From assembly GCA_031385045.1 (NCBI GenBank), contig JANNBC010000011.1, forward strand, positions 8,210-72,209: 64,000 nt of DNA, read 5' to 3'. The stretch comes from a bacterium. GTDB taxonomy: Bacteria; Bdellovibrionota_C; UBA2361; CALJRW01. The notes beneath the pieces were generated by a model. It saw nothing but the letters and a program-made list of their open reading frames with translations. It searched no databases and was not told the origin of the DNA. The position numbers and the translations under genes were made by a program. Below, piece after piece: positions 7,117 to 40,752 of the stretch. Numbering within the stretch: position 1 is the stretch's first letter; every line of letters begins with the position of its first letter.

Positions 7117-8286
7117 TTAACCCAGGATAACATTAATTTCTTGTTCGATAAATCTCTTCCAATCGATCAATCTAAATTCATTATTTACGATCCTTTCATT
7201 TTGCTCATTAACCAGGACAAAACAAGGCACCGTTGGATGTTCCTCTTTGAATGACTTTAGTCCAGTTAAATCCGCAGCACCAATCTTTTTCCTACTTTTA
7301 ATTTCAATTGCACAAAGAATTTTAGCTCCTCTCGCAATCAACAAATCAACTTCTGCTCCATGATTCGTTCTCCAGAAATAAAATTGCAAATCAAGCCTTT
7401 GATAATCACAATAAGCAATAATTTGATTGATGACTAATTGTTCAAATCGACGTCCTTTAACAATTGGATCAAGTTCTGAATTTAATTGATGGGTTAAAGC
7501 ATTTGTGACTCCACAATCAAAAAAATAATAACGTGGATGACTGATTAACTGTTTTCTTACACTTCGCGACCAACCAGATAGTTTATTAACGAGAAAAGTA
7601 TCTTCTAAAATTTGAAAATATCCTTTCACAGTATTGGAAGTAACTGCACATTCTCTGGCGATACTGCTAAAATTAGTAATCTCTCCATCATTTGCTGCTA
7701 CTATATCAAGGAAAGATCCAAATGATCCAATATCTCTCACCAAGCCTTCTTGTTGAATTTCTTCTTTTAAGTATGTACTAACGTATGCTCTTAAAAATTC
7801 CACAGAATCTTCTTGATCGTTTTCGTAAAGTGTTGGGAGTGTTCCCACTTTTAGTGCCCGATCTAAATTAAAATCCTCTCCTAATTCTTGAAATGTAAGT
7901 GGATAAAGTTGGTATGTGTACGCTCGTCCCGCCAATAAGTTAGCGCCACTACGTTTTAATTTTCGGGCACTCGATCCAGTTAAAATAAATCTAGCTTTTT
8001 TTGATTCAATTAATTCATGTACTTCATCCAGCAAACTAGGAACTTTTTGAATTTCATCAATTACAAAAATGGCCTTAGGATACTTTTTAAGATGCAGTAA
8101 GATCTCCTCTCTAAATCTCGAGGGATCTTTAGCGTAAGCAATAAAGTTTTTATGTGGCAGAAGATCAATATAAAAATCATCCTTCTTTAAAAGGGACTTT
8201 ACTAAGGTACTTTTACCAGTTTGCCGAGGTCCAAAGAGAAAATAACTCTTTTTTTTTGTTGGAATAATTAATCTTTGATAAGTCAC
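7117..8286 (-). CDS. AAA+ ATPase with C-terminal DUF4143 domain (COG1373 family)
   Basis: 389 aa. P-loop LFGPRQTGKSTL near the N-terminus. Conserved blocks shared with the paralogs at 27124 and 28355 (FILTGSSARKLKRSGANLLAGRA). A 9-T homopolymer sits at the 5-prime end of the gene. Confidence 0.8.
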   Translation of the reverse strand: MTYQRLIIPTKKKSYFLFGPRQTGKSTLVKSLLKKDDFYIDLLPHKNFIAYAKDPSRFREEILLHLKKYPKAIFVIDEIQKVPSLLDEVHELIESKKARFILTGSSARKLKRSGANLLAGRAYTYQLYPLTFQELGEDFNLDRALKVGTLPTLYENDQEDSVEFLRAYVSTYLKEEIQQEGLVRDIGSFGSFLDIVAANDGEITNFSSIARECAVTSNTVKGYFQILEDTFLVNKLSGWSRSVRKQLISHPRYYFFDCGVTNALTHQLNSELDPIVKGRRFEQLVINQIIAYCDYQRLDLQFYFWRTNHGAEVDLLIARGAKILCAIEIKSRKKIGAADLTGLKSFKEEHPTVPCFVLVNEQNERIVNNEFRLIDWKRFIEQEINVILG

Positions 8287-9819: not shown

Positions 9820-10005
9820 TCAAATCAGACCTGCTTTTTCGCAAGCATCACGGAAGACAAAGTCTACAAATCTAGCCCGCTCTTCGCGTTTTTTTCTTTT
9901 TTCTTCAAGATAGGCAGGAAGGTTATCTAATACTTCAAGGACATCCCACATCCTAGAGTCCTCAAATTCAAATCCCAATTCTCTTAAACGCTTTACTTGA
10001 CTCAT
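9820..10005 (-). CDS. small charged protein co-transcribed with the zeta-like kinase
   Basis: 61 aa. Its start overlaps the upstream gene stop by 4 bp (ATGA). No recognisable domain. Possible partner or antitoxin-like component. Confidence 0.4.
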   Translation of the reverse strand: MSQVKRLRELGFEFEDSRMWDVLEVLDNLPAYLEEKRKKREERARFVDFVFRDACEKAGLI

Positions 10006-10562
10006 AATTCTTGAAATAAATTATATTTGATTTGATCAAAGACTATTTCTTTTCCATTAGGCTTAGCTGCAATGATTATAGCAGAATTATTAGTATTATT
10101 AAATAACCACCAATTATCAACTAGCTTCTGGTAAATGGAACGGAAATTATTAAGAGATCTTGGAAAGCGACGCAGAATAGTATCACCTGGTATATTATGC
10201 CCTCCCTCTTTAACACGATTAGCTACTCTTTGAATTGCTAAATCAACTGATTCCACAAAAATAAAATAGATTTCTATATGATACCCCAATGTTCGTGCAT
10301 CTTTAATCAATTTAATCCAAATCTTCCCAGAAAGAGTGGTTTCAAAAGCAATATCTTGTTTTGCATCCAATAAATTACGAATAACTTTGATTAGAACACG
10401 CCCTGATTCTATTTCTGACTTAACTGAATTCCCTAAACCATTAGCAATTGTATCTGCATTTAAAAATGTTTTAATTTGACCATTTTTTTTCAAAACATCT
10501 GCCAAGGTAGATTTTCCACTACCATTTGGTCCTGCAAGAATAATTAATTTAGGAGGTGTCAT
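10002..10562 (-). CDS. P-loop kinase of the zeta-toxin / AAA_33 family
   Basis: 186 aa. Walker A LAGPNGSGKSTL at residues 9-20. Size and layout resemble zeta-toxin/UNAG-kinase-like proteins. Confidence 0.55.
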   Translation of the reverse strand: MTPPKLIILAGPNGSGKSTLADVLKKNGQIKTFLNADTIANGLGNSVKSEIESGRVLIKVIRNLLDAKQDIAFETTLSGKIWIKLIKDARTLGYHIEIYFIFVESVDLAIQRVANRVKEGGHNIPGDTILRRFPRSLNNFRSIYQKLVDNWWLFNNTNNSAIIIAAKPNGKEIVFDQIKYNLFQEL

Positions 10563-10797: not shown

Positions 10798-10874
<77 letters not shown>

Positions 10875-11064: not shown

Positions 11065-12177
11065 TTGAAGCTCAAACGTTTCACTGTTACAATGATCAGA
11101 CTTTATGAAGATAATTCCTTAGTGCCAGATTTAAATTTTGAACAAAAATGGACCAACACTCCAAGTAGACTAATTATCTTACGTTCTAACGACCGTGAAG
11201 TTCAAATACTAGCGATTGCCGTCTCCGCCCTCTTCCATATAGTTTTATTTTTTATAGTCTACCTTAACTTTACTGGTCTTTTTTCCAAAGAGACAGAAAG
11301 CCTAACCGAGAAAGTTTTAGAGGTAGAGCTTTTACCAGAGCTATTTAGTAAGAAAAAACAAATTGTCAGTGAATCCGAAAAAGTTAATCAGATTAAATCA
11401 GAACAAGCATTTAAAGAAGCAGAACAAAATAATTCTATTCTAGAAGAATCAGTTAAGCGTGGAGATGGCGGGAAACCAATTGCTAAAACAATCACAAAAC
11501 CAGTAACGATCCAAAAAGACCCTTCGCCAAAAACTACTCCAAAAGAAAAGCCTGCTAAACAAGTGGTAGAGAAAACTAAACCGAAAACAAATGAGCCAGG
11601 CAATAAAATAGTTCCAGAAATTAAATTAGAAAAAACTACATCTGCCTCTGATGCCTCTGAAGAAAAGATTGACCTACAAACTAAAACTCAGAATAATTTA
11701 AATTCCGCCCTAGCTGGGAATCTTTTTGCCGGACAAGGGGGGAGTCCTGATTTATTACCAAATGTTCGCGAAGGAGAAATCACTTTACTAAACACTAAAG
11801 CTTCTAAGTATGCTGTTTTTGTTAGGCGTGTTGCCCTACAAGTTTTTAACGAACTAAAAAATCGTGCTTGGAAACAATTAAATTTTGAAGAAATTCAAAG
11901 TATTATTGGGAATGCTACCGTCATTGCCAAGCTTGATCCAAAAGGTAATTTACTAAGCGCTCAACTAATATCTAATTCGGGATCAAAGATTTTTAATGAT
12001 CTAATCTATCTTGCGGTCAAAGATAAAGCCCGCGATCCACATCCACCAGAGTCGGCTTTAGTTGATGGTCAATTTCATTTTGTATTTCAAACCAAGATGA
12101 CATCAGCAATGTCACCTGGTCGAAATGGTGGATACTCTGAAAGACGCTGGTTGGTGCTTAGTGTTGGGTTGGAATAA
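11065..12177 (+). CDS. TonB-family energy transducer
   Basis: 370 aa. N-terminal transmembrane helix with the TonB SxxxH signature (AVSALFHIVLFF). Pro/Lys-rich spacer (KPVTIQKDPSPKTTPKEKPAKQVVEKTKPK). C-terminal block (ATVIAKLDPKGNLLSAQLISNSGSKIFNDLIYLAVKD) matches the TonB/TolA C-terminal pattern. Confidence 0.6.
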   Translation: MKLKRFTVTMIRLYEDNSLVPDLNFEQKWTNTPSRLIILRSNDREVQILAIAVSALFHIVLFFIVYLNFTGLFSKETESLTEKVLEVELLPELFSKKKQIVSESEKVNQIKSEQAFKEAEQNNSILEESVKRGDGGKPIAKTITKPVTIQKDPSPKTTPKEKPAKQVVEKTKPKTNEPGNKIVPEIKLEKTTSASDASEEKIDLQTKTQNNLNSALAGNLFAGQGGSPDLLPNVREGEITLLNTKASKYAVFVRRVALQVFNELKNRAWKQLNFEEIQSIIGNATVIAKLDPKGNLLSAQLISNSGSKIFNDLIYLAVKDKARDPHPPESALVDGQFHFVFQTKMTSAMSPGRNGGYSERRWLVLSVGLE

Positions 12178-12220: not shown

Positions 12221-15200
12221 TTAGAATTCAGGCTTTAATTTCTTCAACTCATTCATAGCATTTTCGGCGCCATCTTTAGCCATCTTTGTTGGGCTAAAAC
12301 TAATTGGCTGCGCAGTGATTTGTCCATTCACAGCTTTATCTAAATCTGCACCATTTGATGATTTTGATAAAGTCTGACCTGCACCTGCTAAAGCAACCAA
12401 CCCCTTCCCTGGATCTTTAGTAGCTATAGCTTCCCCTCCTAACAAGCCAGCAGTTTGAGTTACAGCACCTTGCAACCGCTGATGATTACCTTTTAGATCT
12501 AAGGTACTACCAGTATTGGCCTGATAATTAGTTGAAGCATAAGAAACTGCAGGTGATAATGCGCTAACTTGCCCACCCAATTCAGACATAAATCCATTAC
12601 TTGGATAGCTAAAGGCTTTATCATAACTAGAACCTAACATTCCTCCAGCACCAATTAACTCTAAGTCTTTTGGTTTATCTTTTGGATCAAATGCTCCAGC
12701 AACAACTCCACGAGCCGCCATCATGCCCGACATGTGATTACTAAACTTAGCTCCTTGACTATAACTCTGTTCCCGCATGCCAAAGTTAGCTTGTTGAGTA
12801 AGTCGTCCACCCATTTCATTGGAAGCACGAGCTTGTTGTCCCATGACAAGTTGTCCCATCGAAGATTGAATATTGGCATCCCTGGAAGCTTGCTTAGAAT
12901 CAAGAACTCCTGTCTGTCGATCTTTTTCCCAGTCTGCTCTTTGAGCTGCAACATCCGCTGACTCAATTCCAAGTTTTCCTTGTTGATTCTGAACGGCGGC
13001 ACGATAAAGTGCAGGAGCACCTTTTTTGGTCAAATCAGCTGCCTTACCACCAAGACCTTTCATGGTCTCTACCATAGAAGGATCTCCAGGTGCCCCCGCT
13101 CCGCTTGTTCCAGGGGCACTCTGTGATGAATTTGGCGAAGCTGAACCAGGAGCTGCTGGGGCTGTTTTTGCTAACTGTGTTACTTCATCAAAAGCCATAG
13201 CTGCTTTCATTGAACCCATTACAGATTCCGCTCCCGCTTTACTCTTATCAAACTGGGCAATCTTAGCCGCGTTTCCAATTTCTCCAAATTGTTTCCCATC
13301 AGGAATACTTTGACTACCTTGATCAAATAAACTGCTTCGTGTCCCCAGTGCAGAACTCCGCATTTCTAAGCCCATCGCACTATTCTTAGATTGTAAAGCT
13401 CTTAAAGCTAAGCCTTCCTGACGAGCACCTTTCGCATTAAATGTCTGCTCTGCAGCCATGTTGTTCATTGTACCATGACGAGTCTCTTCGGCAATGGCAC
13501 CTGACCTAGCAGCCGATCCACCCTCAGATGAAACCCCACCAATCCCTTCTTTAACCATGTTGGACATACCAGATTTAGCACCTAGTAATAATTGTCCAGT
13601 TACTGCCGGCACTGCGAAATAAAGAGCTGACATTAAGTAAATGTAATAGGCATTTACAAGATCATGGTTTAGAGAACGAGAAAGAATTAATCCGCGATCA
13701 AATAAATCTAAAGCAGTACCTTCTGTTAAACGTAGACCTTGAAGAATAGAAGTAGCCTTTCCATCAGGACCAAAAACAAAATCTACAGAGTTAGTAGTGT
13801 TTACATCATTTGGAAAATCTAACTTTAAAATACTATAGTTTAAAGAAGCTACGTTATTAGAGTTACCAAGATTTGCCCAAATAGATTTTTCAATATTTTG
13901 AATCACAGCAAAGCCTGCATCCCAACTCTTGGCCCAAACATAAAAACTAGACCAAGTAATCATCCACTTCCACCAACCAGGAACTAGTACCATGACACAG
14001 GCGAGTGGGTAACCAATCGAAAGAAGATAAAGAATCATCCCTTGAACGTGTGGTAACATTTTTGCCCAAGTATAAACCTCGGCAAACTTATTTTTAGAGT
14101 TAGTTGTTCTACTAAACTCTTCCGCGTAATTGGCACTTCGATCTGATGGTAATAAATTTTGATCAGCAAGTTGTGGTGCCAGTGCAAACTCATTGCGAAT
14201 CATATAAGCCATAATCATATGCAACATGAATTGCTGTCTTTGCGAAGCTGTGGCAATTGGCTCTTCAGTACCATCAGACTTTAAAAATTCCCAATCATAG
14301 GTAAATACAAAATCCATCACATCAGTTTTTATAACTTCATTCTTCACAGAATCAGCAGCCACAGGTAGGTCTAAAGAAGTTCGTAAATTAATGTAATGCA
14401 ATGCTGATTCCCATCGAATCCCAGTCATCAACATCCATAGCCAATCATCACAGGTAATAGTTGTCGCTTGAAATTGCACATCGGCAGAACTTGGCGCTGT
14501 GTTGTTATCGCTAAAAGCAAATTGTTGAAAACCTGGGTTGGCTAAATCATTAGTCTTCTTATTGAGTAATTGCTTATAGGCATAAGGAGTTGGAATTCTA
14601 ATCTTATTTAACTCGCACAGTAACTTATCTTTATCATTACCAGAACTACAATCAGTAGAAATGCTTGTACCAGAATTGGTAATTGTGTCAGGAGTTCCAG
14701 TAAATAAAGTTTTAGGTAAATTAAGTCCATTGGAACTTGAAGCTTTAATAAAAGCCCCCTTATTTAAGTATTCACTCATTTTATCACCGCACTCACTGGA
14801 CATATACTGAACCAGTAATTCTCGGAGCTCATTATTGGTAATCTTAGCACCAGTAATATTTTCCATTAACTCCCACTTCTCAGTGCTTAATAGTGGCCAG
14901 TTTGTGGTTTGTGTTGGTGCAGAGTTCTGGTGACGATCTTTAGGTAACTCCCCTCTAATCCCCATTAATCCCACAACGTTCTGTATTACCTCGCTAGAAA
15001 CTTCATCGATTTTGGTAAAAAACCAAGGAACATAAATAGCATAACTTGCTCCTGTTTTTTGATAGTCAGGAGTAATCGCTCCAGAAGCAGTACTACTAAT
15101 AATTGGGTTATTAAGTCCCGTGTAGGCAAGTTCCCAAACTACTCTTTGATCCTGCCTCTCTCCCCCAATCTCCCAAGCAACACCGTGACGCTCGACAATG

Positions 15201-15610
15201 TTAAAGAGCAAGAAATACATAATTCCTGGGCCGGCTGCAAACCAACCGTACATCTTAGGTGGCTGACCAAGAGCCATCATAATAACTGCTATGAAAAAAC
15301 TTAGCATGAAGATAAAAGCACCGATTGTTTTAAGGTAGGAAGCATCGCCACCCATTGGACTACTGTTTGCAGTTCCCAACTGATCTAATCCACCAAATTT
15401 TTGAAGCAATGCACCAAGAGTCCAATAACCCATCGTGGCATAAGAAGCAGTAATAGGATTTGTAGCAGAAGAACAATATTGTCCCCAGGCAAGGTGGCCG
15501 TCCGCATCTGGCGTACAGCGAGTTGTAATTACAGGTTGGGCATAGGCAGATCCAGCTACCCCAAAAACAATTACTAATAGAAAAAACCCTGTTAAAATCC
15601 TTTTAATCAT
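12221..15610 (-). CDS. large polytopic membrane protein, TraG-N-like (F-type T4SS mating-pair stabilisation)
   Basis: 1129 aa. Signal peptide, two clusters of transmembrane helices and a long Gly/Ser/Ala/Gln-rich C-terminal domain. This overall architecture matches F-type TraG. Assigned from architecture only. Confidence 0.45.
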   Translation of the reverse strand: MIKRILTGFFLLVIVFGVAGSAYAQPVITTRCTPDADGHLAWGQYCSSATNPITASYATMGYWTLGALLQKFGGLDQLGTANSSPMGGDASYLKTIGAFIFMLSFFIAVIMMALGQPPKMYGWFAAGPGIMYFLLFNIVERHGVAWEIGGERQDQRVVWELAYTGLNNPIISSTASGAITPDYQKTGASYAIYVPWFFTKIDEVSSEVIQNVVGLMGIRGELPKDRHQNSAPTQTTNWPLLSTEKWELMENITGAKITNNELRELLVQYMSSECGDKMSEYLNKGAFIKASSSNGLNLPKTLFTGTPDTITNSGTSISTDCSSGNDKDKLLCELNKIRIPTPYAYKQLLNKKTNDLANPGFQQFAFSDNNTAPSSADVQFQATTITCDDWLWMLMTGIRWESALHYINLRTSLDLPVAADSVKNEVIKTDVMDFVFTYDWEFLKSDGTEEPIATASQRQQFMLHMIMAYMIRNEFALAPQLADQNLLPSDRSANYAEEFSRTTNSKNKFAEVYTWAKMLPHVQGMILYLLSIGYPLACVMVLVPGWWKWMITWSSFYVWAKSWDAGFAVIQNIEKSIWANLGNSNNVASLNYSILKLDFPNDVNTTNSVDFVFGPDGKATSILQGLRLTEGTALDLFDRGLILSRSLNHDLVNAYYIYLMSALYFAVPAVTGQLLLGAKSGMSNMVKEGIGGVSSEGGSAARSGAIAEETRHGTMNNMAAEQTFNAKGARQEGLALRALQSKNSAMGLEMRSSALGTRSSLFDQGSQSIPDGKQFGEIGNAAKIAQFDKSKAGAESVMGSMKAAMAFDEVTQLAKTAPAAPGSASPNSSQSAPGTSGAGAPGDPSMVETMKGLGGKAADLTKKGAPALYRAAVQNQQGKLGIESADVAAQRADWEKDRQTGVLDSKQASRDANIQSSMGQLVMGQQARASNEMGGRLTQQANFGMREQSYSQGAKFSNHMSGMMAARGVVAGAFDPKDKPKDLELIGAGGMLGSSYDKAFSYPSNGFMSELGGQVSALSPAVSYASTNYQANTGSTLDLKGNHQRLQGAVTQTAGLLGGEAIATKDPGKGLVALAGAGQTLSKSSNGADLDKAVNGQITAQPISFSPTKMAKDGAENAMNELKKLKPEF

Positions 15611-15618
15611 TATTCCTG

Positions 15619-16569
15619 CTATCTTTTTACATACTCCGGTTCTTTATAATTCTTAACTCTTTCGTTCACTGCTTCATGCATTGCCAGAATACTTTTAGCA
15701 ATATTTAACTGCGTAGCTTGTAGATCTGATAATTTACCTTCAGTACTTTCATTTAATTGACTTAACAAGACTTGTAGTGCTTCGCGCTGATCTTCATTAA
15801 AGGTTCCAATTGCAGTATTCACCAGTCCCGCATAATTATAAATAATTCCTAGAGCATGATAATAGGCAATATTAGTTACAAAGATAAAGTAATAATTAGA
15901 ATAACTAAAAGCATCTCGTTGTGCGTCAGTTAACTCTCCTGTTGGGCTTCCATAAATCTTCCAAAATTCCGAATATGGCTTAGGACTTTTAAATGCCTCA
16001 CAGGATAACTCTTTAGTAAAAGTTCGATAAAGTTTTAAGAATGACTGGGCCGCAAACTCAGTAAATTTAACATCAGGGATTGAAAGTAGATTATATTTAG
16101 CAGCAAGTGCCTCTTGATTATTAAAATATGTATCACTTCCCTCTTTTAACTTATCGGGAGTAGAGTTAGCTTCCCCTGTGCAAATTTTTTCTAAAACCTC
16201 CGATAAGGCTTTCCACTTAGCAGTTGCTAACTCACAAGTTAAAGTAGTAACTGCTTTTTGGCCTTCAGCCTTACAGTCATCAACCGTAGATCCTGTAGGC
16301 TCCACTCGTTTCGTAGTCCACTCTACCTCAGTTTCAGCATTACCAGTCCGTTCAACTGTTACATCCCCAAAATACTTTTTATATTCCTCCTTAAAGTCAT
16401 TTAATTTATCCTGAGGAAAAGTAGTAATTAGAGAATTGGCACAAAAGGTCACATCAACAAGGGAAATCTTTTTCTTGCCTGTAAAATTACAATCTTGGGC
16501 ATACAAGATATTTGTAAAAAGTATTAATATTGCTAAGAAAAAGCTTTTTTCTAAAACCTTTAGATTCAT
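15619..16569 (-). CDS. secreted hypothetical protein, possibly TraH-like
   Basis: 316 aa with a signal peptide. The C-terminal patch AIGTFNEDQ is weakly reminiscent of TraH ATGNYDEAV. Assignment is weak. Confidence 0.4.
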   Translation of the reverse strand: MNLKVLEKSFFLAILILFTNILYAQDCNFTGKKKISLVDVTFCANSLITTFPQDKLNDFKEEYKKYFGDVTVERTGNAETEVEWTTKRVEPTGSTVDDCKAEGQKAVTTLTCELATAKWKALSEVLEKICTGEANSTPDKLKEGSDTYFNNQEALAAKYNLLSIPDVKFTEFAAQSFLKLYRTFTKELSCEAFKSPKPYSEFWKIYGSPTGELTDAQRDAFSYSNYYFIFVTNIAYYHALGIIYNYAGLVNTAIGTFNEDQREALQVLLSQLNESTEGKLSDLQATQLNIAKSILAMHEAVNERVKNYKEPEYVKR

Positions 16570-16571
16570 GA

Positions 16572-17231
16572 CTAATTGTTTACAAATAAATTGTTCATAC
16601 CAGCAGCATCTCCATCCGCACGTCGCTTAGGCGTCTCTTCTTGCTTGGAATCTTCTGCGTCTTTACTCGATAAACAAGAATCAACAATTAATCCAACATC
16701 ATGAGATTTATTAGCAGTAGCTTTATCAGTAATACACTTACTTAATTCAGCAAGTAATTGTTTTGCTGGTTGAGAACCAGAATTCTTAGCAACTTCGGCA
16801 ACAAGTTGATAAGTGCTCATGGATCGCTCCATTTGTTGATTACTAAATTCATTGGCCGCTTGTAGCCCTGCTAAAACTGCCGGCTCTGTCATGGCCACAC
16901 CAGTCATATAAAGTGTCACTTGTCCTTTAAGACCCAAGTTTAATAAATCAACACTTCCTTTATGACTCATAGAATCTACATAACCCTGATACGATCCAAC
17001 TCGTAAATTCTTATTTTTAATTGGGGCAGGTGCAGCGCCAGCTCCATCGCCACCATCGCTCGGAACTCGAGGCACAAGCACAGGGGGAAGAAAGTTATCT
17101 CCAATCGCAGTATTTGTCGGCCCCAATGATTCATTTGCTTTATACATTAATGGGGTACTATCCTCTGCTTGAACGATACCCTGACTGCAAATCATTAAGC
17201 CTGCAATTAAAACTAGCAATCCCTTTCTCAT
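16572..17231 (-). CDS. secreted hypothetical protein
   Basis: 219 aa with a signal peptide (MRKGLLVLIAGLMICSQGIVQA). Overlaps the upstream gene by 4 bp. No domain recognised. Confidence 0.45.
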   Translation of the reverse strand: MRKGLLVLIAGLMICSQGIVQAEDSTPLMYKANESLGPTNTAIGDNFLPPVLVPRVPSDGGDGAGAAPAPIKNKNLRVGSYQGYVDSMSHKGSVDLLNLGLKGQVTLYMTGVAMTEPAVLAGLQAANEFSNQQMERSMSTYQLVAEVAKNSGSQPAKQLLAELSKCITDKATANKSHDVGLIVDSCLSSKDAEDSKQEETPKRRADGDAAGMNNLFVNN

Positions 17232-18301
17232 TTGCCTCTCACAATTTTAAACATTTCATCCAAGTAATTAGCGCTAACAACATCATTTATTTGATAAAAC
17301 TTCCCAGAGCTAGAATCGACAACCATAATTGTTGGCGCACTAGTAATATTTAATTTCTGAGCTAACTCTTTAGATGCCAAAGTCGTGAACTTCGCTCCGG
17401 TTCTTTTCTGGAAATTAGCTAACGCCCCGTCCGATACGTCATCTAATGAGAATCCTAGGATATTTAACTCGTCACTATCATCTAACTTAGCAAACACTGT
17501 TTGTAATGCGGTAGCTAAGTCAATTGATTTTTGATCGGTTGTCTTAAAAAAGAAGTAAACATCTACCTGACCAGTTGGAAGATAAGGAACCTTACCAGTA
17601 AGTTCTGATCTAGCTTGAGCTCGCTCGGCTTGTGCAATATCTCTTTTCTCTTCCGGGGATCCAGAGAATAAATCATTATCTTTGCGCTTAGCTTTTTTTA
17701 GTAACTCTTGAGCATCAACTGCCAAGCGACCCACTTGGTTTTCAACTTTAGGCTGCTCGTCAATAAACTGCATTAAGTCAGGATTATTATTAATTTCTGA
17801 CTTAACCCAACCATCGGCTGGAATTGCTCCCGTTTTATACATGGCTAAACCATGAATGGAGGCAGCATCTTTGTTGATCTTCTCTAGTGCTTCAATATAG
17901 TTTTGGTACTGAACAGCATATTCAAAAGCTAATTTCTTATCCCCGACCTTCAAAGCTTCAATCATTGCTTGGAAAGGTTTTGGAGCATCTTTAATCGCCT
18001 TTACTTCGTGAGGTAGTTTTGGATCGCCATACTCGGCAATAATTTTTTCTTGAGGAGTTTCAGGTTGTTTAGGAGTAGAATCGGCTTTTTCAGCATTGGG
18101 AAGAAGATCACTTGGTTCTTCTTTATAATAGGCTTTCTCAATTTTTAGCTGTTTACCAAAAATATTTCGAACATCTCTTTCCTGCCCAGGGAAAAAAGAT
18201 TGTGAGTCAGCCTGGCAATTAAGACTTGCTATAGCTACTTGAGTAACTACTAAACAAAGTCCTAAATATTTAAATTTACTAAACATTTTTCTAATACCCA
18301 C
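17228..18301 (-). CDS. periplasmic thioredoxin-fold protein, TraF-like (no CxxC)
   Basis: 357 aa with a signal peptide. C-terminal blocks VDVYFFFKTTDQKSIDLATALQTV and LAQKLNITSAPTIMVVDSSSGKFYQINDVVSANYLDEMF align in pattern with F-plasmid TraF (MFFYRGQDPIDGQLAQVI and LGVKYFPAMMLVDPKQGSVRPLSYGFISQDDLAKQF). Confidence 0.5.
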   Translation of the reverse strand: MGIRKMFSKFKYLGLCLVVTQVAIASLNCQADSQSFFPGQERDVRNIFGKQLKIEKAYYKEEPSDLLPNAEKADSTPKQPETPQEKIIAEYGDPKLPHEVKAIKDAPKPFQAMIEALKVGDKKLAFEYAVQYQNYIEALEKINKDAASIHGLAMYKTGAIPADGWVKSEINNNPDLMQFIDEQPKVENQVGRLAVDAQELLKKAKRKDNDLFSGSPEEKRDIAQAERAQARSELTGKVPYLPTGQVDVYFFFKTTDQKSIDLATALQTVFAKLDDSDELNILGFSLDDVSDGALANFQKRTGAKFTTLASKELAQKLNITSAPTIMVVDSSSGKFYQINDVVSANYLDEMFKIVRGK

Positions 18302-18405
18302 TTCCCAAAAACTGCCTCTACATATTTCATATCGTACTAAAACATTGAAATGCTTCAGCTAAATCACGATATTTTCTTTAAAATCGATCAAATAGTTAAT
18401 GGCAA

Positions 18406-18828
18406 TTACGGCTCTAAAATTTTATTATAACTATCAAAAATAGCTTTATACTGATCCACAATGGCATTATCAGCTAATGGATTATCACTACTAGCACCCT
18501 TTTTCTTAGTGCTAAGCGAAGATTGTAACTTTTTCTCAGTTCTTTTTGGCATAGTTTTAGCCAATTCTAAGTCAACAATCGGACTCTTCCACTCATTAGT
18601 CTCTTCACAGGTCTCAACAACTAAGTCATCAACATTCTTTAAAGGCGAAATATACTTATTCCCCCCATTTCCACAGTAAACTGAAGATGCCACCAGCTCG
18701 CAGTCCTCCCCTTGCTTAGTGCTATAAACACCATTTTTACAGTTCCAAACCTCAGCATCAGCCAAAGATGTTATAATTAATAATAACAATAAGTTAACTC
18801 GCACCATAGAAAGACTATCGGCTAACAA
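18406..18828 (-). CDS. small secreted Cys-containing protein
   Basis: 140 aa. Signal peptide, six cysteines in the mature part and a Lys-rich tail. First gene of the minus-strand block that ends with the TraG-like gene. Confidence 0.45.
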   Translation of the reverse strand: MLADSLSMVRVNLLLLLIITSLADAEVWNCKNGVYSTKQGEDCELVASSVYCGNGGNKYISPLKNVDDLVVETCEETNEWKSPIVDLELAKTMPKRTEKKLQSSLSTKKKGASSDNPLADNAIVDQYKAIFDSYNKILEP

Positions 18829-18912: not shown

Positions 18913-18927
18913 TTGACATATATATGT
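18913..18927 (+). promoter_or_regulatory. TTGACA -35-like box overlapped by the perfect 12-bp palindrome ACATATATATGT (18916..18927); putative VapB autoregulatory operator
   Basis: Located 20-35 nt upstream of the vapB ATG. Ribbon-helix-helix antitoxins typically bind inverted repeats in their own promoter. A second related half-site ATATATATGC follows. Confidence 0.4.
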
Positions 18928-18948
18928 TTAATATATATGCTTAAACAT

Positions 18949-19197
18949 ATGAAAAGAACTTCCCTCATGTTAGATGATAATTTACTAGAAGAAATCCGAG
19001 CTCTGGCTCAACAAGAAGGGCGAACCTTAAAAGATCAAATTCAATTAATACTAAGAGAAGGAATTAGAAATATGCCTAGTGCCGAGAAAAAAAATTTTAA
19101 ACTTAAACTCCCAAGAACAATGGGAAAATTAATTTCAGAAGTTGATATAAGTAATCGAGATCAATTATTTAATATCTTTGATCAGAAATCTAAATGA
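18949..19197 (+). CDS. vapB: VapB-type ribbon-helix-helix antitoxin
   Basis: The N-terminus MKRTSLMLDDNLLEEIRALAQQEGRTLKDQIQLILREGI is a typical RHH/CopG motif. The ORF-track start at 18913 is a TTG inside the operator, so I prefer the ATG at 18949 (an alternative ATG lies at 18937). Overlaps vapC by 4 bp. Confidence 0.7.
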   Translation: MKRTSLMLDDNLLEEIRALAQQEGRTLKDQIQLILREGIRNMPSAEKKNFKLKLPRTMGKLISEVDISNRDQLFNIFDQKSK

Positions 19198-19625
19198 TTG
19201 CAGTTGATACAAATATTTTGGTATATGCGACTCGCCAGGAATTTCCTCAGCATCAGATTGCCTATGAACTTTTAGTGGACCTAGCTGAGGGCAACAGTCT
19301 TTGGGCAATCACCTGGCCTTCAATTTATGAATTCAGTCGAGTACTAACTCATCATAATTTGGTGAATCCTCCCGCCAGTACCAATGAAATATTTTTAATA
19401 ATTGAAAGCTTACTTAAATCCCCAAGCCTTAGAGTCTTATCACATGGCACTAATCATCAACAAACAATGCTAGCAGAAACTAAAAATACATTCGCTAAGG
19501 GAAATTTTTTCTTTGACTTACAAATCGCCTCGATTCTTAAGGAGCATGGAGTAAAAGAAATTATTACAGCTGACAGTGATTTTTTAAAATTCTCTTGGTT
19601 AAAAGTCACGAATCCGTTTCTCTAG
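19194..19625 (+). CDS. vapC: VapC PIN-domain ribonuclease toxin
   Basis: 143 aa. N-terminus MIAVDTNILVY carries the first PIN acidic residue. A C-terminal ITADSDF acidic motif is present. Classic 4-bp ATGA overlap with vapB. Confidence 0.8.
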   Translation: MIAVDTNILVYATRQEFPQHQIAYELLVDLAEGNSLWAITWPSIYEFSRVLTHHNLVNPPASTNEIFLIIESLLKSPSLRVLSHGTNHQQTMLAETKNTFAKGNFFFDLQIASILKEHGVKEIITADSDFLKFSWLKVTNPFL

Positions 19626-20448: not shown

Positions 20449-23304
20449 CTACTGCGAACAACTACAAACCAAATTCCGATCTCCATAAGCCGCATCAATC
20501 CGCGCAACAGTTGGCCAGAATTTATAGCTCTTCACAAAACTGGTTGGATAAGCTGCTAGTTCACGAGAGTAAGGATGCTCCCAAACGTTAGCACAAACTT
20601 CCAGCGCTATGTGAGGCGCTGACTTTAAAGGATTATCAGCACGATCTAATTCCCCTGATTTAATATCAGAAATTTCTTTAGAAATTCCAATCATTGCTTC
20701 GCAAAAGCGATTAATTTCCGATAGGCTTTCAGACTCAGTTGGTTCCACCATAATCGTTCCCGGAACTGGCCAAGAGACTGTAGGAGCATGAAAACCATAG
20801 TCCATTAATCGCTTAGCAATGTCTTCCACTTCCACACCAACTTCTTTAAATGATCGACAATCTAAAATACACTCATGCGCTACTAATTTATTTTTACCAC
20901 GATAGAGAACTGGATAAAAACTAGCTAACTTATGTGCCATATAATTAGCACTAAGAATTGCCACCTGAGATGCTTTAACTAAACCTTCAGCTCCCATCAT
21001 GGCGATATAAGCAAGAGAGATGGAAAGAATTGAGGCACTGCCATAAGGCGCAGCCGAAACTGGCCCAAAGCCATCATTACTAAATGCAAGTGGATGTGAT
21101 GGTAAATAATTTCGCAAATGTTCTTTAGCGGCAATTGGCCCCACTCCCGGCCCGCCACCACCATGTGGAATACAAAATGTTTTATGCAAATTAATGTGCA
21201 TGACATCAGCTCCAATTTCTGCTGGATAAGAAAGTCCCACTAGCGCATTAAAATTAGCACCATCTAAATATACTTGCCCGCCATGCTTATGAATTAATTC
21301 ACAGATAATCTTAATGTCTTCTTCAAATACTCCATGAGTGGAAGGATAAGTAACCATTAAGGCAGCTAAATTACTTTGATGTAATTTAGCCTTTACTTCC
21401 AGGTCTACTAAATCAACATTTCCATCATTGTCGCACTCCACTACAATAACTTTTAAACCAGCGATCACGGCACTGGCAGGGTTTGTTCCATGCGCCGACT
21501 TAGGAATTAAGCAGATATCTCGATGAGCTTCTCCCTTAGCATTTAGGAAAGCTTTAATCGCAATTAATCCAGCGAACTCCCCTTGAGAACCAGCATTAGG
21601 TTGTAAGGAAACACAATCAAAACCAGTAATTTCCTCCAAAGACTTCTCTAGAGTTTTAATTAACTCCAAGTAACCAATAGTTTGAGAATCAGGTGCAAAC
21701 GGGTGAATCTTAGAAAATTCTGGCATAGTAACTGGCAACATTTCAGCAGTAGCATTTAATTTCATGGTGCAAGACCCAAGTGGGATCATTGCTGTTGCTA
21801 AAGATAAATCCTTTGTCTCTAATCTTTTGGCGTAACGCAAAAATTCAGTTTCAGTATGATAGGCATTAAAGACAGATTCTTTTAAATACTGATCACTTCT
21901 GCTTAAGGAAAAACCAAGTTGCTCGTTGGCAAAAATTGATTCAATTTCTTTTAGTGATATTTCCTTTTTAATTAGAACTTTAATTAATTCTTGAAGATCT
22001 TCGGCCGAAGTTGTTTCATCAAGTGCAATAATAATGGAACCCTTTTTCCAAAGACCTAAATTGATATTTAATGCTGCTGCCCTAGCAAGCATCTCCGGAT
22101 TGGCATCAATTTCAATCGTATCAAAAAATTCTTTTTGCTTAATGGCAATTCCATTTTGCCCTAAAACTTGTGCTAATGTTTTTGTTAAGCGATGTACCCG
22201 CGAGGCAATTGCTTTTAAGCCAGCTGGACCATGATAAGTTGCGTACATAACTGACATAATTGCCAGTAGTACTTGCGCCGTACAAATATTACTAGTCGCC
22301 TTATCCCTACGAATATGTTGCTCACGAGTTTGTAAAGATAATCTAAGTGCCGGATTACCTAAGCGATCCTTAGAAACACCAATTAATCTTCCAGGAATTA
22401 ATCTTTGAAACTCGGTCTTACAAGCAATAAAACCTGCGTGCGGGCCACCAAACCCCATTGGCACACCAAAGCGTTGTGCTGAACCAACAGCGATATCCGC
22501 TCCTAATTTTCCAGGAGACTCTAATAAACAAAGCGCTAACAGATCTGTACCAACGGTAATAAAACATCCGGCATTCTTTGCCGTGGTAATAAATTTACGA
22601 TAATCAACAACCCCACCATGACTAGCAGGGTACTGTAAGTAACAACCAAAGACTTCTTGAAACTCAGAAAACATTTGATAATCGGCAACTTCTAATTCAA
22701 TTCCTAGACTCGTAGCTCTAGTTTGAATTACAGCCAGCGTTTGTGGAAAAACATTTTGATCAACAAAATACTTACGAACGTTAGGATTATTTTTCCCATA
22801 AAGATTATAGGACATATACATAGCCTCAGCCGCGGCAGTGCCCTCATCTAGAAGTGAAGCATTAGAAATCTCTAAGCCTGTTAAACTCATAATCATTGTT
22901 TGAAAATTTAACAATGCTTCTAAGCGACCCTGAGAAATCTCTGGCTGATAGGGAGTATACTGTGTATACCAACTTGGATTTTCTAAAATGTTTCTCTGAA
23001 TTACTGCAGGAATAACTGTATCATAATACCCGCAACCAATATAACTTTTGCCAATAATGTTTTTCTTAGCAAGTGATTGAAAGTATGCCAAACATTCAGC
23101 TTCCGACAGAGGCTCGGAAAAAGTACTAAGCTTTAAATCTTTGGAAACTCGAATCTGATTAGGGATAACTTTAGTAATAAAATCATTTAAGGTTTGATAC
23201 CCAAGTTCTTTTAGTAGAACATTAATCTCAGAATCACTAAGACCAAGATGTCGATTTGCAAAGATATCCGTTGTCTTAGTTGATGATTGTTGTTCAATTC
23301 CCAT
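20449..23304 (-). CDS. gcvP: glycine dehydrogenase (decarboxylating), single-chain P protein
   Basis: 951 aa. Conserved PLP-lysine region and full-length collinearity with single-chain GcvP. Confidence 0.95.
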
Positions 23305-27123: not shown

Positions 27124-28251
27124 ATGAATATTACTCGTTCTCTAAAAAAGCCAATTACAACTGATTTAAAAGATAAGATCGTGTTAATTGGAGGACCTAG
27201 GCAGGTTGGAAAAACAACACTAGCCAAAACATTTATTCAGAAGAATGAACAATATTTAAACTGGGATGACTTAGAAGATCGTCAAATACTAAAAACTCAT
27301 CAAATCGATCCAAAACTAAAAATCGTTATTCTGGATGAAATTCATAAATATGCCAGATGGAGAACACTCTTAAAAGGTTTATATGATAAGTATAAGCAGG
27401 AACTAAAAATCATCGTAACTGGATCAGCAAAACTTGATCATTTCAGAAAAGGTGGAGATTCTCTTTTCGGTCGTTTTTTTTACTATCGGCTTCATCCCTT
27501 AACTCTAGCTGAAGTAGATCCTAAACTTCAAACTCAAACTCAAACTCTGGAACGCCTAATTAAATTTGGTGGATTTCCAGAACCATTTATTAAAGCGGAT
27601 CAAGATTTTCACCGCAGATGGCAAAGGGAGCGAATTAGCCGAGTTATAAAACAAGACCTAAGCGATCTAAGTCATGTTAACGAAATTTCCTTACTAGAAC
27701 TTTTAGTTGATGCTCTTCCACAACGAGTTGGCTCCCCCTTATCAATTAAAAGCCTACAAGAAGATCTAGAGGTTTCACCAAATACTGTTTCTAGATGGAT
27801 CAGTCTCTTAGAAGAAATCTATTACTGTTATCGGATTATTCCCTATGGCCCACCAAAAATCAGGGCAGTTAAAAAAACTAATAAACTATATCTCTGGGAC
27901 TGGTCAGAAGTGCAAGATGTTGGAGCACGCAATGAGAACCTAATTGCTTCGCACCTTTTGAAGTACTGTCACTATCAGGAAGATACCAAAGGCTTCAAAA
28001 TGGAACTTCGCTATTTAAAAGATGTTGATGGAAAAGAAATAGACTTTGTAGTCATAAAAGATAAGAAACCAATCTTTGCTGTAGAATGTAAAACTGGGGA
28101 ATCAAATATCTCTAAAAATCTCTTCTATTTTCAAGAAAGAACCGAAATCCCTAAGTTTTACCAAGTTCATTTTGGTCAGAAACAATACCAAAATAAAAAT
28201 ATAATGGTTTTGCCATTTGCTGAATTCTGCAGGATTGAAAAAATTCCCTAG
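27124..28251 (+). CDS. AAA+ ATPase with C-terminal DUF4143 domain (divergent paralog)
   Basis: 375 aa. P-loop LIGGPRQVGKTTLA and the IIVTGSAKLDHFRKGGDSLFGRF block. Confidence 0.75.
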   Translation: MNITRSLKKPITTDLKDKIVLIGGPRQVGKTTLAKTFIQKNEQYLNWDDLEDRQILKTHQIDPKLKIVILDEIHKYARWRTLLKGLYDKYKQELKIIVTGSAKLDHFRKGGDSLFGRFFYYRLHPLTLAEVDPKLQTQTQTLERLIKFGGFPEPFIKADQDFHRRWQRERISRVIKQDLSDLSHVNEISLLELLVDALPQRVGSPLSIKSLQEDLEVSPNTVSRWISLLEEIYYCYRIIPYGPPKIRAVKKTNKLYLWDWSEVQDVGARNENLIASHLLKYCHYQEDTKGFKMELRYLKDVDGKEIDFVVIKDKKPIFAVECKTGESNISKNLFYFQERTEIPKFYQVHFGQKQYQNKNIMVLPFAEFCRIEKIP

Positions 28252-28354: not shown

Positions 28355-29494
28355 ATGTACATTAGAAGAATACTAAATCTCGAAAAAACTCTACAAAGAA
28401 AATCCTGCTTCCTACTGGGACCAAGGCAAACAGGCAAAACTAGTCTGATTAAAGAAACATATCAGGATGCAAAATATTATAACCTACTAGAAGTAGAAAC
28501 TTTTCGAGCACTTAGTCAAAAACCAGGCTTGATCAAAGCTGAACTAAGCCCCAAAGATCAATTAATAATCATTGATGAAATCCAAAAACTTCCGGAATTA
28601 TTAGATGAAGTGCAACTAATTACTCAAAGTTCCTCTGTAAAATTTTTACTAACTGGATCTAGTGCCAGAAAATTGAAACGTGCCGGAGTAAATCTTTTAG
28701 GTGGGCGAGCAAAATCAATTAACTTGCATCCTCTAGTCAAAATTGAACTTAAAGATCAATTTAACTTAAACCAAGCTTTACAAAAAGGACTACTACCCTC
28801 GATTTATTTTTCAGATGATTACTACTCAGACTTAAAGGATTATATTGAGTTATACCTAAAAGAAGAAATCGCTATTGAAACTCAAATCAGAAATCTCTCT
28901 AATTTTTCTCGTTTTCTAGATATAGCGGCTCTTTACAATTCACAAATAATTAATTTCACAAATATAGCTAATGATGCACAAGTAGCTCCAAGCTCCGTTA
29001 AAGAGTATTTTCAAGTTCTAGTTGATACTCTCATAGCTAATCGCTTACCAGCTTGGACTAAATCAAAAAAAAGAAAGGCATATTCATCTGATAAATTTTA
29101 TTTCTTCGATATTGGTGTAACTAGGTACCTTCAAGGTAGAAAAACTCTTGATCGCAACTCTAGTGATTTCGGTGAAGCCTTAGAAAGTTATCTTTTTCAT
29201 GAACTATCCACTTATTGTGATTATGTTTCTGGAGATAATCTAGCTTACTGGAGATCCACGTCTGGATATGAAGTTGACTTCCTACTTGGAGAACATACTG
29301 CCATAGAAATTAAAGCGACCGAAAGAGTTGTATCCAAGGATCTAAAAGGGCTTTTAGCCTTGAAAGAGGAAAGCATTTTCAAAAATTATCTTTTGGTTAG
29401 CCTAGATACTCGAGAACGCAGAGAAGCTGGGGTAGAAATTCTTCATTTAAATACTTTCCTGAGTCGACTTTGGAATAATGATTTTAGCGATTAA
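28355..29494 (+). CDS. AAA+ ATPase with C-terminal DUF4143 domain (close paralog of 7117..8286)
   Basis: 379 aa. P-loop LLGPRQTGKTSL and FLLTGSSARKLKRAGVNLLGGRA, nearly identical in pattern to the 7117 gene. Confidence 0.8.
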   Translation: MYIRRILNLEKTLQRKSCFLLGPRQTGKTSLIKETYQDAKYYNLLEVETFRALSQKPGLIKAELSPKDQLIIIDEIQKLPELLDEVQLITQSSSVKFLLTGSSARKLKRAGVNLLGGRAKSINLHPLVKIELKDQFNLNQALQKGLLPSIYFSDDYYSDLKDYIELYLKEEIAIETQIRNLSNFSRFLDIAALYNSQIINFTNIANDAQVAPSSVKEYFQVLVDTLIANRLPAWTKSKKRKAYSSDKFYFFDIGVTRYLQGRKTLDRNSSDFGEALESYLFHELSTYCDYVSGDNLAYWRSTSGYEVDFLLGEHTAIEIKATERVVSKDLKGLLALKEESIFKNYLLVSLDTRERREAGVEILHLNTFLSRLWNNDFSD

Positions 29495-36000: not shown

Positions 36001-36540
36001 CGCCCCCAGATTTTGATTCAAGATACTTTTAGGAGAGAATACTGTATCCTTTCTATGTTCTGTCTGATAAATTTTATCAAGTACGTTAACAGCAGCAACC
36101 CCATTGAAAATTAAATCTTGAATAATTAACGAGCCCACTCTATTTGAATCTTGCCCATGGAGCGCAAACTGGTTCCATTCTTTAATGTCATTACGGGCAC
36201 CACTTGCCTGACCAAGCCAAACACCATTAATTGACTGCGCAGCATCAAAACATCGAGTAAAATAATGAATGATAAAGGTACAATCTTTAGCGTCTAAAGT
36301 ATCATATATATTTTTCAAGCCAGACGTATCCTTTACCCAAGTAGCTTCAGGGCTTAAGATCTTGGCGCTAAGCGCATGAATCAAGTTAGTAGAACTCAAA
36401 TCACGTAGATAATCTGCAGGGACAAAAGACCGCAAATCAAATTCAGTAGATATTTTCAATCGCTCCAATTGCGCGACAAACTGTACTTCAATTTCACGAT
36501 GATTTAGTAATGGACTATTGGTTTGATGATAACTAGCCAT
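33004..36540 (-). CDS. giant hypothetical protein, paralog A (1178 aa)
   Basis: No signal peptide or transmembrane segment. Collinear conserved blocks shared with the upstream 1257-aa paralog, for example EMAKDWKQINPIFRELFFPEILLYKLTD, IFKNYDETNTNQEAHSVLVALPYVMHCF, YLYHVVYSNMQIYNHFTYRSDQPALTNNPRAYSDDLELHDEYFRLVIGAR. No domain I recognise. Confidence 0.7.
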   Translation of the reverse strand: MASYHQTNSPLLNHREIEVQFVAQLERLKISTEFDLRSFVPADYLRDLSSTNLIHALSAKILSPEATWVKDTSGLKNIYDTLDAKDCTFIIHYFTRCFDAAQSINGVWLGQASGARNDIKEWNQFALHGQDSNRVGSLIIQDLIFNGVAAVNVLDKIYQTEHRKDTVFSPKSILNQNLGALIQEVRENGNFKRDYSSLSALQIVYKAVADSLVLIAQPTIAGLIFPQDRLGLADGERPVSDKVSRIAFKLLWDQVVLTFNHYQDYSGFQNDIHVVSRILATTLNCILEPDFKFKNLPEDSEDCQLCIWPEAVRNMVDVQNSVLTFLLHKVPNDSGYLSYGSDDDIMTMSPLRTEASRSQNDLLQNLNWALRHKELHPEGAVDEQTRLAKIMHVIRFELIVIFGNDLSKDKIETEMAKDWKQINPIFRELFFPEILLYKLTDVPSYFDTLDNLARPGINGKQWGIQERKSVVDKIKIPLRSDTQLDSRKTDNDILLGQLNESLISLQFGDRRFISGPELAQYLLEDIKVEDRTKGDSQQRGIFSSNAKHPAIQIDMLLKAADTQAYAIGIPAFSVMKHDLLPQDRTSMHSVILDLIKEFSTLPLFSEVDPSLVGKLVEQVDLMLVKENGSTSIPVVNFALALRYYLEQSRNRQFELISELQSISLGHRQDPLSHYIAKLMVGERLVSQETDAGVNTQGFRNIISAGLFEYDATGFSSLQAPYSANLLKTTFNYIYRESCGQKGQFQIMRDVIRIFKNYDETNTNQEAHSVLVALPYVMHCFNRNYHNGDQAALTRRLELRLQAIAEIVFESDARHFIKVKEALLAIQGLGELSSSANISSRAIDDIRFAAENANNPFIEVYDIMRSREKIQVSQFIDSLDGQLGDFIANLNKFAQVPFEKKVSGSEIIKYREGVWLLTETKAEANLFRACFDPTVKTEEFMELVQNSPFNIYPLVYAFNSNTLSSKQLAELAYDAALFKRHVEERDRNDEERWSKEDQIKIVALEAYFDSVSDPITIGKFQAYLYHVVYSNMQIYNHFTYRSDQPALTNNPRAYSDDLELHDEYFRLVIGARQIGYHVITADSLERWSNQFYVRRPVENPHVLQFNPNDSAMNIFASKVLSELPINSVSEERAPGTEQVQPNAVPLPEVPMDPATRKAMRGILTQMLSSLQEDETGSAQ

Positions 36541-36686
36541 GATTAATTTATTATAAATTTTTAATCAAAAACTTATCATAAACTGAATCGCTAAGAAATC
36601 TAGACGACTTAAAGTACTAATATCATCAAGATTTTTATACAATAACTAAGTTAAACATTATATTATTAGTAATAAGGAGAAATAAA

Positions 36687-40460: not shown

Positions 40461-40699
40461 CTTTACTTAATTAACTAATTATCCTTAATTTGCATGAGTA
40501 TTTAAACCAATACTTTAATTGAGAAACTCATCTTATAACTAATAAAGATAAGAAAACTCAGTAGCACATACCCTTACGTCTCATTGTGTCGACAGTTTGA
40601 TCCTATAAATTAAGCTCTTTTTACGCATATAAGTAGCTAAATTCTTTAAATAAATGCTGATATTCAGAACTAGGGAAGGTTCTGACTTATTAAAACATG

Positions 40700-40737
40700 A
40701 TTAGGCGAGTGAAAGCTTAAACTTCCAATCGCCTAAT
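40700..40737 (-). terminator. hairpin downstream of the 627-aa gene (possible terminator)
   Basis: ATTAGGCGA ... TCGCCTAAT, a 9-bp stem with a 20-nt loop, 16 nt after the stop codon. A moderately U-rich tract follows on the minus strand. Confidence 0.35.
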
Positions 40738-40752
40738 TTGATAGCAAATTTA

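Follow-up and report, generated by a model that had tools for sequence, protein, structure and literature searches.

An orphan, deeply diverged traF-(traH)-traG-like gene cassette on the chromosome of a Bdellovibrionota bacterium

Background

Pilus assembly and mating-pair stabilisation depend on TraF, TraH and TraG, which rank among the least understood parts of F-type conjugation; to our knowledge, no structure of any of the three has been solved experimentally. A block of five genes in a bacterium of the Bdellovibrionota, located at positions 12221–18828 of a 64,000-nucleotide stretch of contig JANNBC010000011.1 (the whole stretch is hereafter called the window), raises the question of whether relatives of these proteins can be kept on a chromosome outside a conjugation system. 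An earlier note, made from the sequence alone, had described this block as an isolated TraF/TraH/TraG-like module that was either left behind by a degraded integrative conjugative element (ICE) or retained and repurposed. A literature search returned no paper on TraG/TraF-like genes in Bdellovibrio-type bacteria or on an orphan traFHG module.

The block holds an orphan, chromosomal, deeply diverged traF-(traH)-traG-like cassette that is unnamed in database sources. The reading that we favour, with a little more confidence than doubt, is that of a functional, vertically inherited chromosomal cassette, remotely homologous to the traF-traH-traG operon of mating-pair formation type F systems (MPF_F; F/IncC/SXT-type), that probably works as a stand-alone, repurposed module.

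A three-gene core conserved at one chromosomal site

The block consists of five open reading frames (ORFs) in the ORF listing, all on the minus strand and separated by 8 bp, 2 bp, a 4-bp overlap and 104 bp, in agreement with the co-oriented and tightly spaced genes reported in the earlier note (Table 1). A signal-like hydrophobic N-terminus was present in all five products, as judged from a Kyte-Doolittle scan and reading by eye, no dedicated signal-peptide predictor being used.

Relatives were collected with the large 1129-aa protein. The first, word-indexed search gave only four, among them P0005 (29% identity), while the exhaustive profile search that followed brought the family to 765 representatives (50% identity level), of which 193 reached E ≤ 1e-30. 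The best 150 representatives are mostly full-length (1000–1400 aa), and no member carries a name beyond 'hypothetical protein'. At least 12 related loci besides the window (L and P numbers below) have kept the cassette, at 24–75% identity and in the same chromosomal neighbourhood, the closest genome being a Bdellovibrionota metagenome-assembled genome (MAG; L004, 75% identity). The comparison of synteny proposed in the earlier note as a check for a strain-specific block thus showed the opposite. In every readable locus a thioredoxin-like gene (318–408 aa) and a middle gene (509–720 aa) precede the large gene, and the same order of the trio was found in L001, L002, L004, L005, L006, L007, L010, L011, L018, L020 and the P0145 locus. 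The conserved core is made of these three genes, coding for a thioredoxin-fold protein, a middle protein and a large polytopic protein, and not of all five; the earlier note had missed the division of the middle gene into a 219-aa and a 316-aa part. The 140-aa gene (cluster c13) is restricted to the window and L004, its product has no Pfam or NCBIfam match, and it is a lineage-specific addition.

The surroundings of the cassette are equally stable. Genes gcvH/gcvP are close to it in six of the nine loci compared, GDC-P adjoins it in L002, L004, L005, L007 and L011, and this proximity holds even at ~24% identity (L011) and in a MAG labelled as Pseudomonadota (L005). On the opposite flank, Leu dehydrogenase-uvrB-uvrC is present in L004 and L010, and M48-comEC in L006. 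Housekeeping neighbours (gcvTHP, ald, folD, uvrBC) are hence kept across 24–45% identity, the pattern of a vertically inherited core locus.

In comparison with L004, the ratio of nonsynonymous to synonymous substitution rates (dN/dS) was 0.07–0.20 for the five block genes vs. 0.03–0.11 for the flanking housekeeping genes, these ratios being rough as dS is at least ~1 in this comparison. The five genes are intact and clearly under purifying selection, and since all of them are constrained, the block is no decaying relic; it is probably a long-kept, repurposed module. Of the two possibilities raised in the earlier note, conservation and selection fit the retained and repurposed one.

The large protein and TraG_N

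The N-terminus of TraG of the F plasmid is a VirB6 homologue and an inner-membrane component, while its C-terminus acts in mating-pair stabilisation (PMC4027160). The 1129-aa protein of the window is polytopic, with transmembrane helices at residues ~92–136, 488–583 and 649–676 in an AlphaFold model (predicted local distance difference test, pLDDT, 72), and the transmembrane core is predicted to contain a large Cys-containing periplasmic insert. The C-terminal 440 residues are rich in Ala (15%), Gly (13%), Ser (11%) and Gln (7%). Signal-like N-termini, the polytopic nature of this protein and its Gly/Ser/Gln-rich tail were, in line with the earlier note, confirmed by the hydrophobicity scan, the model and the composition, the tail being also Ala-rich.

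Scanning 51 members of the large family against 24,736 Pfam models gave matches to TraG_N in 11 of them (E 1.1e-6 to 1e-2), at profile positions ~258–420 each time, and TraG_N was the sole Pfam family matched by any member. P0005 was among the relatives with a weak TraG_N match, and when it was searched with tblastn against 72,556 plasmids, the lowest-E match was a 'TraG N-terminal domain-containing protein' of a Persephonella marina plasmid, aligned at the same position (E 2, non-significant alone). As tblastn searches of the plasmids with F TraG were saturated by close F relatives, the Persephonella TraG was used as query. Aligning the 42-member family alignment with Persephonella TraG in hhalign gave 76% probability (E 2.2e-5), with the family pattern EvYtWAk-M-P-y-QG-lLY-La-iaYPF...iP lying opposite amflWAKkviPfmQGfleaffvilFPF...iP in TraG (W-A-K..P..QG...YPF). 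A six-member TraG profile aligned collinearly with the large family over 180 columns through all three core transmembrane segments (E 0.002). The hidden Markov model (HMM) built from six genuine TraG N-domains ranked 40 of 151 members of the family higher than the top-scoring reversed decoy (14.4 vs. 3.3 bits). In a 3 × 3 matrix of the three cassette and three Tra families with reversed controls, only large protein/TraG_N (33 vs. ≤ 18) and thioredoxin protein/TraF (56 vs. ≤ 20) stood out. Taken together, these profile comparisons suggest that the transmembrane core is a remote homologue of TraG_N over the profile region ~260–420, a similarity that is specific but weak.

Outside this region the resemblance is one of composition: the C-terminal halves of the large protein and TraG are both A/G/S/Q-rich and very similar in this respect, with no alignable similarity at profile level (E 0.89). 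The hhalign comparison with F TraG as a single sequence was non-significant (E 0.077), the hmmsearch of the family HMM against the F Tra proteins was uninformative, F TraG being docked by a large composition bias, and neither the large-family profile against PDB sequences nor the model against PDB structures (Foldseek) gave a match.

A separate observation concerns TraT, the F-plasmid surface-exclusion lipoprotein encoded two genes after traG. F TraT aligns to the N-terminus of the TraG-like protein of L005 (positions 9836–10390; 24% identity over 162 residues, phmmer E 4.7e-6, pairwise BLASTP E 1e-9), across the family-conserved YW.QA..L motif and a Gly/Ala-rich hydrophobic stretch; this alignment may be compositional.

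The thioredoxin-fold protein and TraF

The 357-aa protein consists of a helical N-terminal domain, in which a DAPKPF motif is invariant, and a thioredoxin fold at the C-terminal side that lacks CxxC; its only cysteines are at residues 16 and 29, and the mature protein has none. It matched Pfam Thioredoxin_8 just at threshold (27.6 bits, E 3.8e-6), Foldseek comparison of the model retrieved ResA/DsbE/DsbF-type folds (target-normalised TM-score 0.70–0.74, root mean square deviation ~2 Å), and a sequence search of the PDB with the family profile returned thioredoxin-like chains only.

Comparison at the family level pointed to TraF. The thioredoxin family aligned with a six-member TraF profile at 95.7% probability (hhalign, E 1e-8), and its HMM ranked all six genuine TraFs above F TrbB and Persephonella DsbC. 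With phmmer, the Persephonella TraF found the L007 member (E 0.003), a single pairwise match. These results argue for a remote homology of the thioredoxin protein with TraF, again specific but weak. Because catalytic cysteines are missing, the protein would have a binding or chaperone role rather than a redox one and cannot be an oxidoreductase.

The middle protein and its fission

In most lineages the middle gene is one ORF (509–720 aa); it is single in L002 (8369–10000) and split in the window (15619–17231) and in L004 (8387–9991). The 219-aa protein matches residues 85–185 of the single 543-aa L002 protein (BLASTP E 2e-11) and carries the family-conserved L..TEP...AG...A and Cys motifs, while the 316-aa protein aligns to residues 244–466+ of the same protein. 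As judged from these alignments, the two genes are the halves of one ancestral middle gene, and the split is a clean example of gene fission in a secreted protein, in which the downstream half gained its own start codon and signal-like N-terminus. An origin of the 219/316 split by pseudogenisation or frameshift was rejected, given that each half has its own start and signal-like N-terminus, that L004 is split too, and that both halves are under purifying selection.

Homology, resemblance or part of a dispersed system

Contiguous and co-oriented traF-traH-traG_N genes were found in five loci, namely a Persephonella plasmid, pVCR94 (IncC), pT270A, an Enterobacter plasmid and a Providencia plasmid. 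Their products measure 295–366 aa (TraF), 437–480 aa (TraH) and 1052–1204 aa (TraG_N), vs. 357, 219 + 316 = 535 and 1129 aa in the window. Four of the five plasmids have a MOBH relaxase or an MPF_F typing; the exception, from Enterobacter, was classed as MPF_T and non-mobilizable, yet has the same annotated traF-traH-traG-traN genes. The TraF...TraH...TraG order as in F-like operons, pointed out in the earlier note, is therefore better supported than the note had it, as adjacency and sizes agree too, whereas the identity of TraH has no support from sequence. Since the operon order is the same, the middle protein takes the position of TraH and would be either a TraH that has changed too much to be recognised or a replacement for it.

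Several results weigh against homology with this operon. The 1129-aa protein of the window has no TraG_N match in Pfam or NCBIfam, the best TraG_N scores in its family (24.4–28.3 bits) all stay below the gathering cutoff of 36.1, and the alignment with the six-member TraG profile is weak, with a probability of 14%. For the 357-aa protein, the scores against TraF (PF13728, 12.1 bits, E 0.17) and TIGR02740 (12.6 bits) are under the cutoffs of 23 and 232, respectively; the generic Thioredoxin_8 is matched by 6 of 10 family members vs. 2 of 10, weakly, for TraF; and for the ~230-residue N-domain, a profile comparison with its TraF counterpart gave no match (E 0.3) and did not reproduce a single-sequence match of this domain to Persephonella TraF (E 9e-4). 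TraH was judged by sequence or profile similarity including its GGCGGxD..GG.FSF motif and conserved cysteines, and such similarity was not found: neither the 316-aa nor the 219-aa protein nor the full-length orthologues have a Pfam match to TraH (PF06122), and hhalign comparisons of the middle protein with TraH are at noise level for 8- and 11-member profiles (E 0.08–0.45) and too weak for F TraH as a single sequence (E 0.45). The TraH-like patch that the earlier note had seen in the 316-aa protein was accordingly not confirmed. The same note had proposed HMM searches of the 357-aa and 1129-aa proteins with TraF and TraG_N, and had named the lack of significant hits as the outcome that would count against it; neither protein gave a significant direct match, so that the claim fails in the form in which it was put. 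What survives of it is, for the 357-aa protein, the fold, the missing CxxC and the match to the TraF profile at family level, and for the 1129-aa protein, a remote homology to TraG-N at family level.

From these weaknesses it could be argued that the resemblance to TraF and TraG_N is an artefact or a product of convergence, and that the block codes for an unrelated envelope system made of a TlpA/ResA-like protein and an unrelated polytopic protein: every match lies under the curated thresholds, the thioredoxin domain fits generic families equally well or better, hydrophobic composition could explain matches in transmembrane regions, and the middle protein is not TraH-like. We consider this unlikely. 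Among all Pfam models TraG_N alone was hit, repeatedly and in the same region of the profile, with E-values down to 1e-6; reversed decoys of the same composition score far lower; and the lowest-E plasmid match of P0005 is a TraG_N gene at the same position. Moreover, two weak homologies, independent of each other, recur in the arrangement known from genuine traF-traH-traG operons, with the same order and adjacency and near-equal sizes, and chance or convergence is therefore improbable.

A second alternative accepts the homology and regards the cassette as a single piece of an F-type (MPF_F-like) type IV secretion system (T4SS) or conjugation system that is complete but scattered over the genome, with traLEKBV, traC, traWUN, the coupling protein and the relaxase located elsewhere, as in SXT/IncC. 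In pVCR94, pT270A and the Enterobacter and Providencia plasmids, traF-traH-traG do stand alone among unrelated genes, and because the IncC/SXT traFHG is itself detached, the lack of tra neighbours is no proof against a T4SS elsewhere in the genome, which has to be counted against a stand-alone module. The inspected DNA covers ~66 kb of the source genome, made up of the window and ~2 kb of its left flank, and ~20 kb for each related locus. Within it, Pfam detected no other conjugation gene in the whole 64-kb window, phmmer searches with the complete F and Persephonella Tra sets found no other Tra protein in the six-frame translated window or in eight related loci (~10 kb around the cassette), and the gene tables of further loci and the 2 kb left of the window contained no tra gene. 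The earlier note's statement that the window holds no other conjugation genes is thereby corroborated by both Pfam and phmmer. Against a dispersed system speak, besides this lack of tra genes in the window, the left flank and the related loci, the constant housekeeping neighbours over 24–45% identity, which are the behaviour of a core genome and not of a mobile element, and a divergence from TraF and TraG far beyond that of any sampled plasmid lineage (the Pfam TraF model gives E 0.17 for the 357-aa protein vs. 2e-69 to 3e-52 for genuine TraFs). This alternative too seems improbable to us. As the cassette has long been kept at a site in the chromosomal core, and the examined flanks contain neither ATPase nor channel genes, a stand-alone, repurposed module is the reading we prefer.

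That the block is a decaying ICE remnant inserted near tRNA-fMet, as suggested by the distance of 1.35 kb to this gene and by toxin-antitoxin genes nearby (VapBC, zeta toxin), can hardly be upheld and is refuted in our view: the genes are intact and under purifying selection, the same chromosomal site is used in many distant relatives, no integrase (Pfam) was found in the window and no att-like repeats were found, the guanine and cytosine (GC) content of the block is unremarkable (0.38–0.42 vs. a window mean of ~0.37, no GC island), VapBC is a separate insertion because it is absent from L002, and tRNA-fMet has the block on its 5′ side, whereas its 3′ end, where tRNA-targeting elements integrate, points away. 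An ICE, relic or intact, was rejected on the grounds of the missing integrase and att repeats, the wrong side of the tRNA and the same site in distant relatives.

Possible role and significance

If the cassette is a retained and repurposed module, its three products would assemble into a single complex in the envelope, in the manner of TraF, TraH and TraG of the F plasmid. The polytopic TraG_N/VirB6-like protein would provide a membrane platform with a periplasmic insert and a long, flexible C-terminal domain, and this domain might take the contact role that the C-terminus of TraG has in mating-pair stabilisation. The cysteine-less thioredoxin-fold protein may be a non-catalytic adaptor or chaperone, and the middle protein a periplasmic partner at the TraH position, exported here as two separate pieces. 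Such a complex would do its work in the absence of any machinery for DNA transfer. Its most plausible task would be to assemble or stabilise a surface structure, or to serve in cell-cell (prey) contact. Homology, conservation and selection are drawn from the data, whereas we infer the complex and its function, a point that counts against our reading as far as function is concerned.

Many cultured Bdellovibrionota are predatory. It is conceivable, although we regard it as rather doubtful, that a clade within this group possesses, as a core chromosomal trait, a stand-alone envelope machine, derived from or ancestral to the F-specific TraF/TraH/TraG subcomplex of pilus assembly and mating-pair stabilisation and free of T4SS ATPases, that serves cell contact such as prey attachment or invasion; if the hosts are predatory, the cassette would be a candidate cell-contact device. 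Were such a stand-alone machine real, it would be the first example of a TraF/TraH/TraG sub-module of a T4SS living alone. A trio kept for long without secretion genes in the examined flanks would show that the sub-complex works as an independent envelope module, and it would offer a simpler system for dissecting the function of TraF, TraH and TraG. At the minimum, an annotation is obtained for hundreds of 'hypothetical' metagenomic proteins.

Genomic setting and further observations

The features of the block and its immediate surroundings are listed in Table 1.

Table 1 Features in and around the gene block (window positions; dN/dS relative to L004, rough as dS is at least ~1)
Feature	Position	Strand	Basis	dN/dS
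Initiator tRNA-Met (CAT)	10798..10874	-	ARAGORN; C1:A72 mismatch, GGG/CCC anticodon stem	
370-aa TonB-like neighbour	11065..12177	+	Weak TonB C-terminal domain (E 4e-4)	0.11
1129-aa TraG_N/VirB6-like polytopic inner-membrane protein	12221..15610	-	ORF and family-level profile matches	0.14
316-aa C-terminal half of middle protein, own signal-like N-terminus	15619..16569	-	Alignment to L002 orthologue	0.20
219-aa N-terminal half of middle protein, secreted	16572..17231	-	BLASTP and alignments	0.12
357-aa TraF-like secreted protein (352 aa from ATG at 18286)	17228..18301	-	Thioredoxin_8, hhalign, Foldseek	0.07
140-aa small secreted protein, four cysteines, upstream of cassette	18406..18828	-	ORF	0.18
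VapBC-type toxin-antitoxin pair (ribbon-helix-helix antitoxin and PIN toxin)	18913..19625	+	Pfam RHH_5 and PIN	
gcvP, glycine dehydrogenase, 951-aa ORF, synteny anchor	20449..23304	-	ORF, GDC-P	0.06

On the left, the block is flanked by comEC, an M48 peptidase, uvrC, uvrB, an AAA_14 ATPase, a Leu/Phe dehydrogenase, a zeta-toxin gene, tRNA-Met and a TonB-C-like gene, and the additional 2 kb to the left of the window encode RNase E/G. On the right follow VapBC, a helix-turn-helix gene, gcvP, gcvH, ald, folD, gcvT, minCD, pgpA, RNase II, polA and obg, among others. The VapBC flank and a tRNA-fMet at about 1.3 kb, both reported in the earlier note, were thus found as described. VapBC lies between the cassette and gcvP, outside the cassette; it is present in L004, and in L002 gcvP abuts the cassette directly. 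A slight increase in GC at 12–14 kb corresponds to the part of the gene that codes for the Gly/Ala-rich tail, and a scan for promoters and terminators gave chance-level results only.

The TonB-like gene is convergent with the TraG-like gene and its product has a Lys/Pro/Glu-rich linker; L004 has this gene in the corresponding place, and near the cassette of L020 there is also a TonB_2 gene. On the 3′ side of the initiator tRNA, a zeta-toxin gene (186 aa) and an overlapping 61-aa ORF (9820–10562, minus strand) could represent a small toxin-antitoxin insertion at the tRNA, unrelated to the cassette. Three AAA_14 + DUF4143 ATPase paralogues are present in the window (7117–8286, minus strand; 27124–28251 and 28355–29494, plus strand), and a similar gene is also found near the L002 cassette. 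A second block of uncharacterised large proteins is formed by three consecutive ORFs of 1178, 1257 and 627 aa (33004–42636, minus strand), with no Pfam match at E ≤ 0.001.

In the related loci, a TatA/B/E gene occurs 3–10 kb downstream of the cassette at three otherwise unlike sites (L018, 17230–17433; L020, 18744–18899; P0145 locus, 18376–18558), a placement that may be coincidental or a remnant of synteny. Further genes without Pfam match separate gcvP from the cassette in L011 (3395–6453; 266, 540 and 207 aa) and in L005 (3483–6956; 503 and 268 aa and a 308-aa ORF on the opposite strand); in BLASTP and phmmer comparisons, they grouped neither among themselves nor with Tra proteins.

Comparison with known systems

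The closest counterpart is the traF-traH-traG operon of MPF_F systems of the IncC/SXT (MOBH) type and of the Persephonella marina EX-H1 plasmid, with which the cassette shares three contiguous, co-oriented genes of the same order and near-equal sizes, the first of them coding for a secreted thioredoxin-fold protein. It differs from this operon in that the similarity is seen by profiles only, the middle protein is without similarity to TraH, the N-domain of the thioredoxin protein is another one and the large protein has a much larger periplasmic insert (transmembrane core at ~490–680 vs. ~320–460 in TraG), and also in being chromosomal, syntenic and apparently vertically inherited, with no tra gene, relaxase or coupling protein nearby.

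With F TraG (PF07916), the large protein has in common the layout of a polytopic N-terminal domain ahead of a long tail that is hydrophilic and of low complexity, the likeness of the tails being one of composition, as well as a P..QG / YPF-type transmembrane motif. Unlike F TraG, it does not reach the Pfam gathering score and has no TraS, TraT or TraN partners by the cassette.

The thioredoxin protein of the cassette resembles F TraF (PF13728) in being periplasmic, with a thioredoxin fold from which the active-site cysteines are missing, whereas the TraFs of IncC-type plasmids and Persephonella keep CxxC. It departs from F TraF in the ~230 residues before the thioredoxin domain, which are unrelated to the TraF N-domain at profile level. 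The best structural matches of its C-terminal domain are oxidoreductases of the TlpA/ResA/DsbE class, from which it is set apart by the lack of catalytic cysteines, by the long additional N-terminal domain and by its fixed operon partnership with a TraG_N-like protein.

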